NCBI GenBank assembly: GCA_054600435.1
Contig: BAAIJX010000005.1
Span: forward strand, 558,001 to 622,000
Origin: Neophaeotheca triangularis
Taxonomy: Eukaryota
Length of the DNA: 64,000 nucleotides
Direction of reading: 5' to 3'
Each line of letters starts with the position of its first letter. The stretch's first letter is position 1. Below, piece by piece: positions 15,328 through 48,144 of the stretch. The position numbers and the translations under genes were made by a program. The notes beneath the pieces are model-generated. The model was not told the DNA's origin. It did not search any database and saw only the letters and a list, made by a program, of their open reading frames with translations.

Positions 15328-16669
15328 TTATTGCTTCTCCATAGAGCCCAAGACGGCCCTAGTGAACTCTTGCGTGGTAGAGCTACCGCCCATGTCCCTT
15401 GTCCTGACTTGGCCTTCGGCAATAACATTGTACACAGCCTTGCTGATCCTGTTCGCGTGATCATCGAGACCCAAGTGCCTCAGCATCATGGCACTGGAGA
15501 GGATGAGCGCAGTTGGGTTGGCTTGGTCCTTGCCTTGAATGTCAAGACCGACGTGACGGCAGCCGGGTTCGAAAACGGCGACTTCACGGCCCATGTTGCA
15601 GCCAGGTACTATGCCCGGGCCACCGACGAGTCCCGCTCCGATGTTTGAGAGGATGCCACCATACAAGTTGGGCATGACCATGACGTCGAATTGCTGAGGC
15701 CTGCTAACACATTGCATGCTTGCGTTGTCCACGATCATGTCGTTGGTCTCGATGCTGGGGAACTCCTCGCCGACCTTCTTGACAGTGTTGCGGAAGAGAC
15801 CGTCGGCGAGCTTCATGATGTTGGCTTTGTGGATGCAAGTGACCTTGCGCCTGTTGTTGGCTAGAGCAAAGTTAAAGGCAAACTTGGCGATGCGCTCGCT
15901 CTTTGCGCGGGTGATGATTTTGAGAGATTCGACGACGCCGTTAACAGACTGGTGCTCTAGGCCAGAGTATTCACCCTCGGTGTTTTCACGAATGATGCAG
16001 AGGTCGACGTCCTTGTGTCGAGTCTCGTAGCCAGGGATGTTCTTGATGAGGACAATGCTGGCGTAAATGTCAAGCTCCTGTCGCAGGGCGACGTTGAACG
16101 ATTGGTGGCCGGAGCGCTCGACAGGAGTGTGGAGGATACCCTTCAACCCAAGCTTGTTGCGCTTGAGAGAGGCAATGGATTCGCGAAAGAGCTCTTCAGA
16201 GTGCTTGCTGCCAGTCTCAATACCGGACACGTCGACCTGCTCCCACTCAACGGGGACATTGTCGGCCTTGAAGATGGACTTGACGGACTCGGAAACCTCA
16301 GCACCAATACCATCACCTACGCGAGCATTTTCAGTTCCTGTTCCTCCTGCAGATACTACTTGTCCTTGCTTTTACTGAACGCGTACCTGGGATGAGAGTG
16401 ACTGTGTATTTGCCGCCATACTTGGTGGGCTTGAAGATGTCGGTGTTGACGGAGGCGTAGGCTGTGTCGACGGTTAGTTACAAATACGGGACTTGATGCG
16501 TGAAGGGCGCGACGCAGCGTACATCGTGATATCGAAGGAGTCGCAAAACGAGATTGGGTTCGGGCGGTTTGCAGGAGGGTCTGAGGCCCAGTGGTCAGTT
16601 GCTTGCCATGGATGCCAATGTACTGTATGTGATACTACATACCCTGGCGGCCCTTTGAGAAGACATCAT
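15328..16669 (-). CDS. IDH1: Mitochondrial NAD-dependent isocitrate dehydrogenase subunit 1 (regulatory)
   Basis: TLIPGDGIGAE split by an intron; IIRENTEGEYSGLEH, HKANIMKLADGLF, MIVDNASMQ, VMPNLYG and FEPGCRHVG. Three 5' introns; mitochondrial presequence starting MMSSQRAAR. Confidence 0.95.
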
Positions 16670-18116
16670 GGTTGCGACGGGAAGAAGATGGGTGTGGGTG
16701 AATGTTCGACACACAAGGTGAGGATAAGTTGCAGGCCAGAGTAAGAGACGAGATGCTGCAGGATTGAAGCTTGCCTTGCCTTGCCTGTTCTGTCGCCCGG
16801 TAGCTCTTCGCGTCGCTACCGACGACCCGCCCGTTGCTTTTGCACGTGCAAATCTTGGCCAAGCCGACTTCCCTCCGAGCCTTGCCCAAAGTGGAAAGTC
16901 TCCGCCCGTCCGAACAACCTCACCTCTTCCGCATCACCCAGATACGTCTGCAATGAGACTGCCATGTCTGGCACACAATAAGTTTTCGAACCATGTCCTA
17001 GGAGATAGTACCATCCGCCAACGCACATGAAGGGTCGCGAATAGGGCAGTAAGCCGGCTTGCTCTTCTGCCAGACCCAGCTGGGCTGGCCACAACAGAAA
17101 CTCGGCATGCAGGTTCCTCGACCTACCGATTTGACTGACCGCGGCTCGTTGACGTGAACGCTTGGGGGAGATAATCTGTACTAGCTCATGCCCATATGCC
17201 ATCAGACGTGCGGAGGTAGCAAAGAGTCCGAGAGTCACAATCACATCAACCAGCGAAGTTTGAACCTCGTCGACCATATCTCTGCTCATCTTAGCGAACA
17301 TTTTCCCACACAGCTCGACGGCCAACTCAATTGCATTCTGCTTAGCTCCAGGCGATCAGCAATTTCGACCGAGATCCTGCTGCACTGAATAGTCTTGGAC
17401 GGCATCAGTGTCGACCGGCCAACGAGAACTAGTAAAGGATTCCCCATGGTCGTCCAAATGCGTTACATCTACAGCTGTCATAAGCGCCACGAGACTATTT
17501 TCAGCTATCCTCTCACAACCGTGGTGTCGCACTTGTGGGCTCACTGCGTTTTCGCTGTGTTGTGAACAGGCACTCAGCGCGCCAAATCCAATGCGCTTTG
17601 ACCAAGTCTTATTGACACCAGAATGCGGATAAGCTCGACCTCACCCGCACCACACCTCAATGAAACCGTCTCGTATCCATTGTGAGTTTGCCACGAGGCA
17701 CGAGAAGAGGCACAATGCACGTTTTCGTGGCTTGCCGTTCGAAGGGAGGTGCCATTCCGCTGTCTAGGGTCTGGGCCGGGGCGTTTCTGCGAACGACTGC
17801 TGTGTCACTGCTGATTGCGTATTGTAAGTTCCCGCTGACAGACGCACTACAATGATCGTCTGGACAGCTTTACTGCTACTGGCCCCCTGCAGGCGAATCC
17901 GCTCGTTGCAGTCAAGCGTTTTGATACGCACCGCAACCGGTACTTCATCAAACAAAGTCCTCTCAAGAGATTGGCACTTTCCGAGCATCTTCTGTCTAAT
18001 CTCACATTCCTGTCGAGAGTTGAGTCGCATTCATCAATGTTCGCGTACGGATGAAAGGAGCGTGCTTATTGTCGCCCCTCCTCCATAACACCTTTCACCT
18101 ATTCTCTTTGCCGTTT

Positions 18117-18184
18117 CCCTATTGACACCCGAAAGCACTTCCAAGTGTTGCCCTTTTCTTTATTCTCATCCCCTATTGACACCC
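18117..18184 (+). promoter_or_regulatory. Duplicated CCCTATTGACACCC element, putative MAT1-1-1 (alpha-box) binding sites
   Basis: Exact 14-bp direct repeat at 18117-18130 and 18171-18184, followed by TATAA at 18223 and the precursor ATG at 18399. A related CTTATTGACACC lies at 17608-17619. Confidence 0.6.
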
Positions 18185-18398
18185 ACTTCGAGCTGTCGAG
18201 CCAACTGACGCTCTCGAGATACTATAAGACATGCCAAACATCACGCCGTTTTCGTCGTCTTCTCCACTCACCAACAAGTCATTCTTTCAAACCCGCATAC
18301 CGGATCAATAACTCGAGTCTAAGTCATAAGACTACTGAGCTTCCTCCTCAACTCAACATCATCCGAACAACATCACCAACCGATAAACAACAAACAAC

Positions 18399-19304
18399 AT
18401 GAAGTTCTCCGCATCTCTTCTGGCCCTTGTGGCCTTCACCGCCGTTCAGGCCGCCGCCGTCGCCGATGCCGAGCCTCGCCGTGGTGGCAGAATGGGCTTC
18501 TGTGGCGCCCCCGGTGCCTCTTGCGCCAAAGCGAAGCGCGCCGCTGAGGCTGTCGCCGAAGCCGTCGCCGAGCCCAGGAAGCACAAGAGCAAGATGGGCT
18601 TCTGCGGTGCCAAGGGCGCATCTTGCGCCCGTGCCCTCGAGAACATCTACGAAATCGAGGCCGCCGCTGAGCACTCCCACGACCTTGCCACCCGCAGCGC
18701 CGACCCCGAAGCGTGGTTCCGTGGCAAGAAGAACCGCCGCCTAAAGGGTGGTTTCTGTGGTGCCCGTGGCGCGTCTTGCGCCAAGCGCCGCGAGGCCGAG
18801 CCCAAGAAGCACAAGAGCAAGATGGGCTTCTGTGGCGCCAAGGGTGCCTCTTGCGCCAAAGCGAAGCGTGACGCAGTCGCTGAGGCCGAGGCCGACCCCA
18901 AGAAGCACAAGAGCAAGATGGGTTTCTGCGGTGCCAAGGGCGCATCTTGCGCTCGCGCCGTTGAGGCCATTAACGAAGTCGACCCCGAGATCCTCAGGGA
19001 AGAGTGCTTCGAGGAGGGCAACGAGTGCGACACCATCCTCAAGGCGCACGCCGCCTACCACGAGGCCGTCAAGCGTGAGGCCGACCCCACCGCCGACCCC
19101 GAGGCCTGGTTCCGCGGCAAGAAGAACCGCCGCCTAAAGGGTGGCTTCTGCGGCGCCAAGGGTGCCTCTTGCGCCCGTGACACCGACGAGGCCGAGGAAG
19201 CCGAGTGCTTCGCCGAAGACGGTGACTGCACCGTCGCCGAGGAGGGCCACGCTGACCTTGGTGCCGCTCTCGACCGCGCCCTCGAGACCCTCGAGACCGT
19301 GTAG
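18399..19304 (+). CDS. Kex2/Ste13-processed repeat precursor; probable alpha-type pheromone precursor (ppg1/ppgA/ccg-4 family) with atypical cationic peptides
   Basis: Signal peptide; six GFCGA(K/P/R)GASCA cores, each preceded by X-A/X-P dipeptide runs and followed by KAKR, KRR or R. Cys spacing C-x3-G-x2-C matches ascomycete alpha pheromones. Acidic Cys-containing spacers. Confidence 0.85.
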   Translation: MKFSASLLALVAFTAVQAAAVADAEPRRGGRMGFCGAPGASCAKAKRAAEAVAEAVAEPRKHKSKMGFCGAKGASCARALENIYEIEAAAEHSHDLATRSADPEAWFRGKKNRRLKGGFCGARGASCAKRREAEPKKHKSKMGFCGAKGASCAKAKRDAVAEAEADPKKHKSKMGFCGAKGASCARAVEAINEVDPEILREECFEEGNECDTILKAHAAYHEAVKREADPTADPEAWFRGKKNRRLKGGFCGAKGASCARDTDEAEEAECFAEDGDCTVAEEGHADLGAALDRALETLETV

Positions 19305-20210: not shown

Positions 20211-21024
20211 CTACAAAGGCCTCGTCCTCTCCCCCCGCCAGAATCCCATGACCTCCCCAGTCTCACCAATCCAATCCCTAACCCCATTAACCGCCGCCTT
20301 AGCCATACCCTGACTCTGCGTACCCGCTCTCTTCCTACCCCTAACCGGCGGCGCACCACCAATTCCCACATCCCCAAACCCACCACTCTCCCCAGCGCGG
20401 GTAAACGAACTCCCCACACCAGTCGCATACTCACTGCCCATACTCGGCAACACATTCTCACCCGCACTTAGGCTGACGAACAGCGCAAAAGGCACCAACC
20501 ACACTTGCAAGCCGAAAAAGGCCGCGATCTCGGTGAAAGTCGGCACATCTTGCTGTTGCTGGTAAGCGTAGTAATCGTACCTTCCCGTCGTCTGGGGCGG
20601 GGAGGAAAAGTGGCGGAACCAGAGCCAGTGGTTCACGACCACGGAAGCGCAGGAGAGGAGGAAGACCGGGTCGGTGAGCTTGACGACGGGGAAGTGGCGG
20701 AGGTTGCGGAGGTAGAGGAGGTGGGAGGCTATGCTTAGGGCTGAGAGAGTGAGGGGGAGGCGGTCGATGAGGAGGAGCAGGAGTTGTAGGAGAATGGTTG
20801 TGTAGATTAGCCGGGTTAGGATCTTTTTGGCGAGGACGCTGTGTTCTTCGACCAGTTCGGAAAGGTAGTAGAGGCCTGAGGCGATGGCGAGGGTGAGGAA
20901 GAGGAACGAGAGGAGTAGGCCTAGGTAGCCCTGCGATTGGGTACGGGGGTTAGTTGAGGGAGCTTGAGGGGGGTTTCTTTTTGGAGGTGGGGGGTTGGCG
21001 CACTACTAGGGGGAGGATCCACAT
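20211..21024 (-). CDS. SVP26: ER-Golgi transmembrane adaptor Svp26/Erv26 (TEX261 family)
   Basis: MWILPLV|GYLG...LAIASGLYYLSELVEEH with intron 20931-21003; also NHWLWF and VWLVPFALFVSLSAGENVLP. Confidence 0.9.
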
Positions 21025-44503: not shown

Positions 44504-46633
44504 CTACGCACTCCCCTTGTCCCCGCCAGCCTCCCCCTCCTCCATTTTCTTCAGCATATTCTCAATCTTCCGATGCTCAAACACAAACCTTGGATACAAA
44601 AACGGCCTTAGATCGTACCGATTGTCATCCGGCGTGTAACTCTCCAAATACAACCCGGGAGTCATCGTTGTCATCTTATGCCGATTGATGGCATAATAAT
44701 ACATGAAATCCCTGACCTTGGCGTAAACTTCTCTAGGCCGCAGGCGCTCGCTCCAGTCGACACACAACCGCTCGAAAATGCCGACGTAGCCGAGTTTGCA
44801 AGTTTTGCGCAGCCGGCCGAGCACGCTGAGTTCATCGTAGGTGAAGCCCATGTCGGCTTCGTCGGATTGCACGTAGGTAGAGGTTATGGGCTCGAGCTCG
44901 GCCGTAGGGGTGGCTTCGAGGAAGGCGTGGAGGATGGGGAGGCTGAAGGCGTGTTCGGCATGGTCGATGAAGCGCTTGAGGTCGGTTTTGGAGATACCAC
45001 CGATGGGGTTGATGTCGGCGGAGCTGCAGTCGTATTTGGTGAGGTAGCCGCGTAAGCATTCGTCAACGTTGGCGGAGCCGAGAACGAGGAGGCCGCCGCT
45101 GCCGCCGCGAGAAGTGGGGAGGAGTTGAGCTAGGGCGTAGGCTAGCACCATTCGGGAGCGAGATTGGAAATTTTGGAGCGCGAGGTTTTCGCTGGGGCTG
45201 CCGCCTTGGGTTTTGAAGTGGGGTTCGAAGGAGAGAGAGTTGGAGACAACGCTGTAGAGCGCGTTGTACATGGGGTCAATGTTGGTGTCGATGTGGTGAG
45301 AGCCGATGGCGGTTGCGAGTTGGGCAGCGCGGGAACGGGTCTCGTGGGATGATTGTGATGACATGCCCATGAATGTAGTGGTGAAGATGGAGTTGCAAAA
45401 TTGGTTGGCGGTCATTGTCGTGGGGTCCAGAGTAGGGGCGAGACGTTGAGCATCGGCGAGGACGGCTTTGTTGCCTTTTTGTGCTTCTGAGACTACAAGC
45501 CGACACATGCTGTAGACGATTGTTGCTGTAGCACAGCTGTCGATGCCGCCGCTAAGGGGAACGAGGTAGCCAGACGCGCGCGAACGGCGGAGGTAGTCCC
45601 AGAGCCAGCACGCTGGACCAAGAGCGATCTCTTCTTCAGGGGTATGATAGCGGGCCTCTATCGGCTGGGATAACTTTGTTCTCGGATCAGGCACGTCGCC
45701 GTGTTTGCACAGTCTGAAGTCAACCTGTACACGCTCGAGCTCTTGGACAGTCGGGTCCTGCGCTTGCATGCCGCGACTTCGTGAGGTTCTGAAGCCCCAA
45801 ATCTCGTCAAGGTCAACGGTGGCGGTCTGTACTTCAACATCGCGGAGTGAGAACTGAGAGCCTTGGGCTAGGACTTTGCCCGAATTGAGGATGAGCGAGC
45901 ACCCATCATAGTATAGCCTGTCACCGTCACACCCTCTCTGATTTGAGTACATATAGACACCGCCCGTTTTAGCCGTAGCTTCGGTGATGAGAGTGACACG
46001 GGTGTCGAGCTTGCGCAACTCATGATGACTTCCACTGGAGTTGAGCACAATTTCGATGCCCGCAAGACTGTACATGGAGTGCGGCGAGTTTGGCGTCCAC
46101 AGCTCTTCACACGTCTCAGTGGCGAAGGATGCATCGAGAGCTTCAAACGCCACTTCGCCGATCCGACACCGTTTTTGGCCCAGGGGAAGTTGTTGAATGA
46201 CCTTTGGGAGAGCATAATCATCTACCCTCCTTCGGGGCCAAGGAGTGAAATAGCGCATCTCTCGGAAGTTTCCATCATTGCAAAGATCGAGCTTACACCT
46301 GATAGCGAGCACTTCACCATTCAAGGCGATCAGACGGGCGTTGTAGCTGCACCCGCGATGTTGAATAGGCAGGCCCAGGTCAACGATGATGTCCTGACAG
46401 TCGGCATGGCTGATAATCTCTGCAGCTACGTCCCAAGAATTGCTGTAGACATCGTTCTCGAGCCAGTGGTCCAACAAGCCATAGCCTGGGATACAAAGCT
46501 CTGGAGTCAGAATGATGGAGGCTCCAGCCGCTTTGGCAGTTTGGATTGCTTCGACGATGCGGTCCTTGTTGCCATCATAGTCGAGCACCCACTGGTTCAG
46601 TTGGGAGGTAGCGAGGACACACTTCCGGGTCAT
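44504..46633 (-). CDS. QNS1: Glutamine-dependent NAD+ synthetase
   Basis: Nitrilase domain (PEL, CEELW, SGSHHELRKL) plus synthetase domain (PLSGGIDS, LVLGSANVDE, TKYDCSSAD, PTAELEP, NRHKMTT). Confidence 0.95.
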   Translation of the reverse strand: MTRKCVLATSQLNQWVLDYDGNKDRIVEAIQTAKAAGASIILTPELCIPGYGLLDHWLENDVYSNSWDVAAEIISHADCQDIIVDLGLPIQHRGCSYNARLIALNGEVLAIRCKLDLCNDGNFREMRYFTPWPRRRVDDYALPKVIQQLPLGQKRCRIGEVAFEALDASFATETCEELWTPNSPHSMYSLAGIEIVLNSSGSHHELRKLDTRVTLITEATAKTGGVYMYSNQRGCDGDRLYYDGCSLILNSGKVLAQGSQFSLRDVEVQTATVDLDEIWGFRTSRSRGMQAQDPTVQELERVQVDFRLCKHGDVPDPRTKLSQPIEARYHTPEEEIALGPACWLWDYLRRSRASGYLVPLSGGIDSCATATIVYSMCRLVVSEAQKGNKAVLADAQRLAPTLDPTTMTANQFCNSIFTTTFMGMSSQSSHETRSRAAQLATAIGSHHIDTNIDPMYNALYSVVSNSLSFEPHFKTQGGSPSENLALQNFQSRSRMVLAYALAQLLPTSRGGSGGLLVLGSANVDECLRGYLTKYDCSSADINPIGGISKTDLKRFIDHAEHAFSLPILHAFLEATPTAELEPITSTYVQSDEADMGFTYDELSVLGRLRKTCKLGYVGIFERLCVDWSERLRPREVYAKVRDFMYYYAINRHKMTTMTPGLYLESYTPDDNRYDLRPFLYPRFVFEHRKIENMLKKMEEGEAGGDKGSA

Positions 46634-48144
46634 GACTGATGTTCTTTAACCTCGGTGAGGAGTCAAGATACTGTGAACAATCGTGGAAGGGTTTAGCATT
46701 TGGTTTTCTTGGAGGTCATGTGGTGTATAAGGTACTGTAGGTACCTCGACTAAGGTATGGTAGGTAGGTACTAGTAGGTATTAGGTAGTGCTCGTATTGT
46801 TGAAGCAGGGCAGGCAGTCAAGACACTGCCAAGACCAGGACCAGCCTTTCACGGGCGACTTCCGGCTTCGCGAGCCTGGAGCTTTCTGCCGGATCAGCGA
46901 GATCGGCTCCCGAAGAGCCTCAGCAGATACAACCGACCTCTTCCCTTGACAGAGTAAATAAGGTTCACTAGGCTTTCAGCTAAAGGTGCTCGAGACTTGA
47001 CTTGAGAATATAATAATATTAATGTGAGTTGCTCGGATCACCGTGTAGAAACAGAGGCAGAAGATGGATAGCTGTCGGGCGAAAGGGACTACAGTAAAGG
47101 AACCATTTCACGGTGAGAGAGGTTTGGATCGTAGTACTAGCGGGTCTCTGCTCATTTCCATAGAGAGAGATCTTCGAAGCGATAGAAATCTAGTGTGATT
47201 GGCTCATTTCGCTTCTTGTGCACGCGGAGGAGGTGAGGAGATGTCGGCCATGTTATTATTATTATGCACATAAAAACGACAACGGCCGGGTCTTTTGCCG
47301 ACTACTACTTACCTAGTAAAAGGACAAGGTCTGGGCAGGTGTTGCGGCCAATTATTCTTGGAGAAAGTCAATAGTACCACCGTTGCTACAGTGGCAACAA
47401 GTGGCACCGCGGGGACTTGCAGTAATAATAATACCGGGCAGACGTCTGCAGAAGCTCCAAGATAGGCTTGGCTGGGCATTCCCTTGATAATGATTGTGTT
47501 CGTACGACGGGGCTTCTGCTGTCGGTCGTTCGGACGCCGTGCTTTTTGGGGAATCATGGCTATAATGACAGTCATGTAGATTGGTATGGCATTGTTGGCA
47601 TGAGAAAAGATGGTGATGAGGCCTGAGCAACCAAACCGAATCATGGAAAGGGCAGGCAGTAATGATCAATCACATGAGTACTAACCGTGAGTAATGTAGG
47701 TTATTAGTACCTAGGTAGGTAGGTACAGTAGGTAGACGTAGACATATACAGGAAAGCACAGACGCCGTCGGTTGCCAGGTGGTCGCTGTGGGGCCGAAGC
47801 TTGTCGCCAATACTGCGACTGCTTGCCTTGCCCTGCCCTGCCACTGCTACTGCTTGCTTGCTTGCTGAGCTGTCCGCCGTCTTTCTGCTGCTTCAAATAC
47901 ACCCTGCCTTCCCGCCGCTCCATCCCACTCGTTCTCACTCTCACCTCACACACTACTACTACTACTACTCTCACCCAACACTCGGTCCCACAGCTCGCAT
48001 TCCCATCTTCATCAGACTTCTCCCAAACCTTCCATTGCTACACCACCAAACTCGTGAGGTAAGATGTCTTCTACAAACGCCCTCATCGCCAGAGGCGCGA
48101 ACCCTCGCTAATACGCAGTGGCCCTACAGCTCCTCGCCACAAGC

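Follow-up and report, generated by a model that had tools for sequence, protein, structure and literature searches.

A putative alpha-pheromone precursor gene was analysed in a 64 000-nt stretch of Neophaeotheca triangularis DNA (contig BAAIJX010000005.1, positions 558 001–622 000; referred to below as the window). The gene lies on the forward strand at 18399–19304 and is a single uninterrupted open reading frame (ORF) of 301 codons plus stop, as established by translation. An original prediction, made from the sequence alone, had placed one precursor with six peptide copies of three types at this position, and every one of its coordinates was matched by translation and a regular-expression scan. 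The features of the gene, its promoter and its immediate neighbours are collected in Table 1.

Type 2 has the general form (R/K)KHKSKMGFCGAKGASCA in its three copies and type 3 the form WFRGKKNRRLKGGFCGA(R/K)GASCA in its two copies; if untrimmed, the peptides would be 17–23 aa in length. The core C-G-A-(P/K/R)-G-A-S-C, with two cysteines six residues apart and a central Gly, was found in all six copies. The turn motif is matched only in part: PG occurs in type 1 only and GQ in no copy. The in-register X-A/X-P run that had been predicted before each copy was present in six out of six cases (AAVADAEP; AAEAVAEAVAEP; SADPEA; EAEP; DAVAEAEADP; EADPTADPEA). The peptides are followed by basic sites, which are KAKR or KRR in half of the copies and a lone R in the other three. 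Two additional acidic Cys loops, CFEEGNEC (19005) and CFAEDGDC, are located in the conserved C-terminal region and had been absent from the original prediction. No family scored above the curated cut-offs in a Pfam search of the precursor protein.

The copies have had time to diverge at the DNA level, but their peptides have been retained. The three type 2 copies differ synonymously at six codons and by a K/R exchange at one; the two type 3 copies likewise differ synonymously at six codons (two of them within the 14-residue extension) and by R/K at one. Unlike the peptides, the spacers flanking the copies differ in amino acids, and the similarity of the copies exceeds chance. Tandem Repeats Finder returned only short, low-score arrays for the gene and missed the peptide copies because their synonymous sites are too diverged. 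A second sequencing run from the same organism showed three differences in the 906 nt of coding sequence (CDS), all synonymous, and five in approximately 400 nt of flanking DNA. Low-depth contigs over 18744–19026 were also obtained from run X3 (another organism and study); these carried 19 differences (90–95% alike), with the type 2 extension changed at codons 136, 138 and 142 and the Cys-loop codons unchanged or synonymous. As their depth was 2, they were not used as evidence.

Table 1. Features of the precursor gene, its promoter and its neighbours (window coordinates; distances in parentheses as negative numbers are relative to the gene, charges as positive numbers)
Feature	Position	Strand	Sequence and remarks
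Alpha-pheromone precursor CDS	18399–19304	+	Single exon, 301 aa plus stop
Signal peptide	18399–18452	+	MKFSASLLALVAFTAVQA; hydrophobic N-terminus read from sequence; aligns with the N-termini of all homologs
Peptide type 1	18477–18527	+	RRGGRMGFCGAPGASCA (+3); family-typical form, cf. RKGGRLGFCGPPGAPCG in P0046 and RFRGGKMGFCGPAGVSCA in P0007
Peptide type 2, copy 1	18576–18629	+	RKHKSKMGFCGAKGASCA (+5)
Conserved helical spacer	18630–18695	+	RALENIYEIEAAAEHSHDLATR; family alignment; AlphaFold (AF2) helix 75–101, predicted local distance difference test (pLDDT) 80–92
Peptide type 3, copy 1	18714–18782	+	WFRGKKNRRLKGGFCGARGASCA (+7)
Peptide type 2, copy 2	18804–18857	+	KKHKSKMGFCGAKGASCA (+5)
Peptide type 2, copy 3	18900–18953	+	KKHKSKMGFCGAKGASCA (+5)
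Conserved acidic spacer and degenerate Cys loop	18954–19076	+	DPEILREECFEEGNECDTILKAHAAYHEAVKR; family alignment, AF2 model
Peptide type 3, copy 2	19107–19175	+	WFRGKKNRRLKGGFCGAKGASCA (+7)
Acidic C-terminal tail	19176–19301	+	Net charge −13; loop ECFAEDGDCT, then helix; homologous to the end of ccg-4-like precursors
Distal promoter element, 15-mer	17610–17624	+	TATTGACACCAGAAT (−789); includes alpha-box-type site TTATTGAC at 17609–17616
YYATTGAB match	17656–17663	−	
Proximal alpha-box-type site	18119–18129	+	CTATTGACACC (−280); in 33-nt direct repeat
Second proximal alpha-box-type site	18173–18183	+	CTATTGACACC (−226)
TATA-like element	18223–18229	+	TATAAGA, ~175 nt 5′ of ATG; read from sequence
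YYATTGAB match	18304–18311	−	TTATTGAT (−95)
Iso_dh dehydrogenase (isocitrate/isopropylmalate family), upstream neighbour	15328–16371	−	Pfam
Erv26, downstream neighbour	20211–21002	−	Pfam

Relation to ccg-4/ppg1-type precursors

In a protein search covering 5.8 billion clustered proteins, 29 matched the precursor at E ≤ 1e-3. Twelve of these were full-length dothideomycete homologs (28–39% identity, E values from 3e-56 to 4e-22), including proteins from Rachicladosporium, Saxophila and Acidomyces. Weaker Leotiomycete matches carry source names such as 'Pheromone' (P0016, Pseudogymnoascus destructans, 5e-10) and 'Clock-controlled pheromone ccg-4' (P0024, Mollisia, 1e-7). The repeats RCGYPGQPCG and RCGHPGQPCG, one or the other of which is present in the Leotiomycete matches P0019, P0024 and P0028, are described as mature alpha-factor repeats of Mollisiaceae, Drepanopezizaceae and Ploettnerulaceae (PMC10569646).

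Thirteen full-length proteins were combined into a family alignment (A1) and were found to be collinear. Their common order begins with the signal, the first peptide, a K-R-A-A-x-A-V-A helix, the second peptide, a long helical spacer and further peptides; it continues with a D-P-x-x-x-K-x-E-C-F-x-E-G-x-E-C-H-T block and another loop, and ends with E-C-x-A-P-x-G-x-C-T-x-A-x-R-x-L-D-E-L-E. The A1 profile was searched against 1.84 billion cluster representatives and gave 346 matches at E ≤ 1e-3, 168 at E ≤ 1e-10 and 46 at E ≤ 1e-30. Among the matches listed (the best 150 of the 346) was P0104 at 1.7e-17, a protein of 299 aa with five repeats of QWCRIHGQSCW, the Neurospora peptide cited in the original prediction; it was also matched by the window protein in BLASTP (2e-10). 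P0104 was presumed to be ccg-4-like on the basis of these repeats and of the length of N. crassa ccg-4, which is 299 aa. An alignment of ten Sordariomycete ccg-4-like representatives (A2) was then compared with A1 using hhalign, and the two aligned collinearly, starting at residue 1 and reaching the C-terminal loop and helix (99.7%, E = 7.8e-27). The non-repeat regions, for which the original prediction had proposed a comparison with ppg1/ppgA-type proteins, are thus homologous to them. A second, word-indexed profile search returned 37 proteins at E ≤ 1e-5 and added Zymoseptoria tritici IPO323 MYCGRDRAFT_110066, Oleoguttula mirabilis, a Teratosphaeriaceae species, Extremus antarcticus (UniRef name 'ccg-4') and two Chaetomiaceae 'pheromone' proteins.

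The architecture of the window protein resembles that of Sordariomycete ccg-4/ppg1 precursors (Neurospora crassa, Sordaria) in its signal peptide, in a first repeat followed by a KR-AAEA-type helix and a long helical spacer, in further repeats placed between X-A/X-P runs and basic sites, in the C-x6-C core with a central Gly and in the C-terminal C-x-A-P-x-G-x-C-T loop and helix. It differs in the peptides themselves: those of Sordariomycetes have one or two residues in front of the first Cys (QW-C, W-C) and W as their last residue, whereas those of the window protein carry 8–14 mostly basic residues before Cys, have the core F-C-G-A-x-G-A-S-C-A and are of three types within one precursor. The Leotiomycete alpha-factor precursors (Wilson et al., 2023; PMC10569646), as described there, share the processing grammar and the core spacing, but their mature repeats are 9–14 aa in length with a GQ or PG turn, compared with 17–23 aa untrimmed and PG in type 1 only in the window. 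The two-Cys pheromones of non-Pleosporales dothideomycetes in the account of Le Marquer et al. (2019; PMC6339444) are of the same clade and class. Z. tritici, E. antarcticus, Saxophila tyrrhenica, O. mirabilis, Acidomyces richmondensis and Rachicladosporium sp. all combine a basic stretch before Cys with the same C-terminal domain as the window protein, to which they are 26–39% identical; the window protein has the highest charge among the dothideomycete members seen, and in all of its copies but one out of six K/R stands where the family has the Pro of C-G-x-P-G. As a secreted protein with at least three near-identical peptides between dibasic sites, it also resembles the Kex2-processed repeat proteins (KEPs); KEP denotes a structural class and not a function, and the window protein was placed in the pheromone subgroup by homology.

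The gene is a clade-typical alpha-pheromone precursor and no new kind of peptide system. The family also contains a giant member, P0031 (957 aa), with 27 Cys loops that are mostly KGVLTR-CTVPGLAC-GKR; the Leotiomycete maximum is given as 18 repeats (PMC10569646), far below this number.

Promoter and gene neighbourhood

Three exact copies of the 10-mer TATTGACACC are present in the 64 kb (at 17610, 18120 and 18174), each of them on the plus strand and less than 800 nt 5′ of the ATG. Five of the 26 YYATTGAB matches of the window lie within 1 kb upstream of the gene (binomial 4.7e-5). The motif (T/C)(T/C)ATTGA(G/T/C) is the MAT1-1-1 consensus derived by electrophoretic mobility shift assay for the promoters of the A. 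fumigatus genes ppgA, preA and tomA, which according to the same source builds on a Penicillium chrysogenum motif from chromatin immunoprecipitation sequencing (PMC8022922). Judging by the sites, transcription is probably driven by a MAT1-1-1 alpha-box factor acting through the TATTGACACC copies.

Seven metagenome loci (L001–L007) that encode relatives of P0006, 33–40% identical to the window protein over full-length matches, were used for comparison. Four or five YYATTGAB matches stand at similar distances in all five of the homologous loci that have at least 1 kb of upstream DNA. In four of these five (L004–L007) the 15-mer TATTGACACCAGAAT is present exactly, at about −700, and L002 shows one mismatch; 3′ of the distal 15-mer, collinear conserved blocks are located in the likely 5′ untranslated region. 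As in the window, a dehydrogenase gene lies upstream on the opposite strand in L002, L004, L005 and L007, and Erv26 lies downstream in L003. No Erv26 match was found in the 4 kb downstream in L005, so that the downstream neighbour is not universal. In the pheromone gene of this clade, position and alpha-box-type promoter sites are conserved, and a basic N-terminal stretch is an integral feature.

The host was placed as a Capnodiales s.l./Mycosphaerellales-like dothideomycete because of the identities of its NAD synthase (44504–46645), which are at best 82% to named proteins (Zasmidium cellare, Cladosporium halotolerans, Saxophila, Hortaea), ∼69% to Elsinoe and ∼58% outside Dothideomycetes; in the database searched it has no near relative among the named species. 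Only housekeeping families were recognised by Pfam in 28 long ORFs of the window. Erv26 is an ER-vesicle cargo adaptor and adjoins the precursor gene in both the window and L003; this adjacency is probably a coincidence of gene order with no functional link.

A promoter unit of ∼33 nt is present in three copies (17588–17620, 18098–18130 and 18152–18184). In two of the three, CTTTG (an HMG-box-like core) stands 12–15 nt before the ATTGACACC site; a 5-mer is too short to judge, and CTTTG and ATTGACACC could form a composite element.

The basic extension

The extension was compared across the family in a survey of every Gly-containing C-x6-C loop in 176 family proteins (P0001–P0167 and P0288–P0296; the NAD-synthase matches P0168–P0287 were excluded). 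Loops recurring within a protein were retained, yielding 751 peptides from 155 proteins, and 21 proteins were dropped for having no recurring loop. An extension was counted as the stretch free of A and P that precedes the first Cys, with counting begun anew after any KR; this definition under-measures peptides containing A or P. Under the assumption of Ste13 trimming only, the longest extension of the window protein is 14 residues (equalled or exceeded in eight of the 155 proteins), its top charge of +7 is the second highest (reached by two of 155, with P0138 alone higher) and its median charge of +5 is reached by three. With a cut after the last dibasic pair, the length becomes 7, which 62 of the 155 proteins equal or exceed, and the charge +3, which 26 equal or exceed. 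By these rankings the gene is at the cationic extreme if Ste13 alone trims the peptides and is ordinary if the dibasic pairs are cut. The higher-charged P0138 (334 aa, ccg-4-like) contains two WCTRPGQSCW peptides after a 24-residue Arg/Trp-rich extension (+9) that itself follows a P-R-R site.

Basic stretches before the first Cys in the dothideomycete family include RIRGGQIGFC, RFRGGKMGFC, RKVYGRLRNWIGFC, KKKKSKVVGGLTNFC and, in Zymoseptoria tritici, KKRRGNSFVGWC. Long basic extensions are found elsewhere in the clade as RKVYGRLRNWIGF-C (P0038), KKKKSKVVGGLTNF-C (P0042), KKKKKIKGGQFNF-C (P0049) and KKHHKHHGHGRLGF-C (P0032), and further as KYHRKGKIGF-C (Saxophila) and KKRRGNSFVGW-C (Zymoseptoria). 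On the sequences compared, the basic N-terminal stretch characterizes the clade as a whole. Among the window's peptides, type 1 (RRGGRMGF-C) is near the family norm (RKGGRLGF-C, RFRGGKMGF-C), and types 2 and 3 are lineage-specific elaborations. The gene is the most cationic dothideomycete member seen and one of few with three clearly distinct peptide types; it stands at the extreme of a known family, with basic front ends that are those of its relatives in stronger form.

The description of the pheromone as unusually extended therefore held in respect of charge, by which the gene is at the cationic extreme of the family, and failed in respect of the basic extension as such, which is the clade norm and is present in Zymoseptoria tritici. 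Its novelty was largely lost: relatives share the basic extensions, and the two-Cys class was reported in 2019 as an alpha pheromone with two conserved cysteines in 13 non-Pleosporales dothideomycetes (PMC6339444), in a paper that gives the sizes of known ascomycete alpha pheromones as 9–24 aa. A literature search for the Zymoseptoria peptide or its locus tag found no paper, and one on pheromone precursors in Cercospora, Dothistroma, Teratosphaeria and Zymoseptoria gave taxonomy papers only; PMC12582325 contains no mention of Zymoseptoria or Dothideomycetes.

Processing and function of the peptides

The most likely processing was inferred from the sequence grammar and the established alpha-factor pathway; receptor, regulation and active redox state are inferences too. 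The signal peptide would bring the pro-protein into the secretory path and would then be cleaved, after which a Kex2-type convertase would cut at the KR/RR sites behind the peptides (KAKR, KRR and VKR), a Ste13-type dipeptidyl aminopeptidase would strip the X-A/X-P pairs and a Kex1-type carboxypeptidase would trim the trailing K/R. The six released peptides, of three types, would act on the opposite mating type through its receptor of the Ste2/PRE2 type. A lone Arg after the peptides is also found in many relatives (K-A-R-D, V-G-R-D), and a monobasic cut is therefore probably part of the processing in this family.

The full-length homology to ccg-4/ppg1, the gene order, the alpha-box-type promoter sites and the lack of RiPP (peptide made on ribosomes and modified after translation) neighbours together support the pheromone-type assignment, as the original prediction had it. 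The gene is very likely an alpha-factor-like mating-pheromone precursor, orthologous to ccg-4/ppg1/ppgA, of a Capnodiales s.l./Mycosphaerellales-like dothideomycete, which makes it a candidate mating pheromone in a group whose sexual cycles are mostly unknown. Several observations weigh against this assignment. The core departs from WC-x3-GQ-xC, with F for W and GA for GQ, and in types 2 and 3 (five of the six copies) K/R takes the place of the family Pro of C-G-x-P-G. The charges of +5 to +7 greatly exceed the median for the family (+1 to +2). Behind several peptides stands a single Arg (RALEN, RAVEA, RDTDE) and no dibasic pair, so that classical Kex2 release is not assured. In the promoter, none of the five Ste12-type TGAAACA sites of the window lies upstream of the gene, and the proximal site motif fits a MAT1-1-1 consensus that comes from Eurotiales and not from Dothideomycetes. 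Since, moreover, L001–L007 are mutually related (61–79% to P0006) and are no independent witnesses, the promoter conservation is supportive footprinting and no proof of regulation.

Two other functions were weighed against that of a mating signal. A dikaritin/ustiloxin-like RiPP precursor, the cores of which would be cyclised by tailoring enzymes, is extremely improbable: the Kex2-processed repeat architecture is common to RiPP precursors (PMC7329392), but no DUF3328/UstYa, tyrosinase, P450 or methyltransferase gene or other tailoring gene was detected by Pfam among the 28 long ORFs of the window and the six peptides contain no Tyr, while 98.6% of pheromone-annotated KEPs are without such neighbours according to the same source. 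Co-option of the pheromone scaffold, by which the polycationic peptides would be mainly antimicrobial, membrane-active or cell-wall-binding rather than mating signals, is very unlikely. It would account for the second rank of +5 to +7 among the 155 family proteins and for a balance of +32 in the peptides versus −30 in the remainder, which resembles many cationic-peptide precursors, and the F. oxysporum alpha-pheromone is described as interacting with membranes via positive groups and Trp (PMC7289986). As far as the sequence goes, charge is all that speaks positively for it; the orthologous position with conserved neighbours, the conserved alpha-box-type promoter sites and the full family architecture argue against it, as do peptides that are Gly/Ala-rich with few hydrophobic residues. 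Nor is another, canonical precursor known to which the mating role could have passed, although no genome-wide search for one was made.

Within the pheromone family, it is quite possible, if short of probable, that the mature products are short. The convertase would then also cut inside the extension (RR, KK/RK, KK...RR), the predicted peptides would be GGRMGFCGAPGASCA, HKSKMGFCGAKGASCA and LKGGFCGA(R/K)GASCA (14–16 aa, charge +1 to +3) and the long cationic peptides would never be extracellular. In P0290 of Zymoseptoria tritici KRRR/KKRR follows the X-P run directly before GNSF(V/T)GWCGAIGAPCA, in several Sordariomycete representatives the W-C core comes immediately after KR, and the ordinary ranking of the window protein after dibasic cuts points the same way. 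Against such internal cleavage, the basic residues of many members are non-adjacent and form no dibasic sites (RIRGG, RFRGG, HIRGG, RIKSYK). Types 1 and 3 contain RR, at which their basic front end may be shortened; the internal pairs of type 2 are KK/RK alone, with Lys at P1, which makes them poor Kex2 sites. For this reason the basic front end is, in our view, at least partly kept in mature type 2 peptides. The type 3 copies differ only synonymously along all 14 residues of the extension, those upstream of RR included, which argues for constraint on the extension; the counts are low, and gene conversion offers another explanation.

The label 'disulfide loop', given to the peptides in the original prediction, is an assumption and not established. 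For the F. oxysporum pheromone WCTWRGQPCW, activity is reported for the reduced form, which has a Gly-Gln beta-turn, and inactivity for the Cys2–Cys9 oxidised form, and positive groups and Trp residues are reported to mediate membrane binding (PMC7289986). The latter provides a modest rationale for the basic extension, which could raise the local concentration of the pheromone at anionic surfaces. With its three peptide types the gene supplies a natural series for the effect of N-terminal charge on Ste2 activation and on membrane binding.

An AF2 model based on A1 had a mean pLDDT of 61.5 and a predicted template modelling score (pTM) of 0.55. Confident helices (residues 41–57, 75–101, 184–225 and 264–300; block means 80–92) correspond to the spacers and the C-terminal part, and the peptides are of low confidence and disordered. 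A Foldseek search of the model against the PDB gave no matches at E ≤ 1e-3 and generic helical bundles only. Taken with the balance of charge, the model points to a helical scaffold of acidic character, which would carry the peptides and neutralise them. A more far-reaching proposal appears doubtful: that the pheromone of this lineage has evolved into untrimmed polycationic peptides (18–23 aa, +5 to +7), which would serve as mating signal and as membrane-active/antimicrobial agent, with the basic end anchoring them to anionic walls or membranes and the conserved acidic helical pro-scaffold neutralising them on export.

Outside the peptides, the alpha-pheromone precursors of this clade and of Sordariomycetes share a conserved helical scaffold. 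The helical spacers are conserved between Dothideomycetes and Sordariomycetes, and from the one class to the other the precursors have a C-terminal element in common (window 18954–19301; P0104, P0294, P0295, P0020), which consists of the pheromone-like loop C-x-A-P-x-G-x-C-T-x-A-x-R followed by an amphipathic helix. To our knowledge this conserved pro-domain has not been described; possible roles for it lie in folding, charge neutralisation or ER export.

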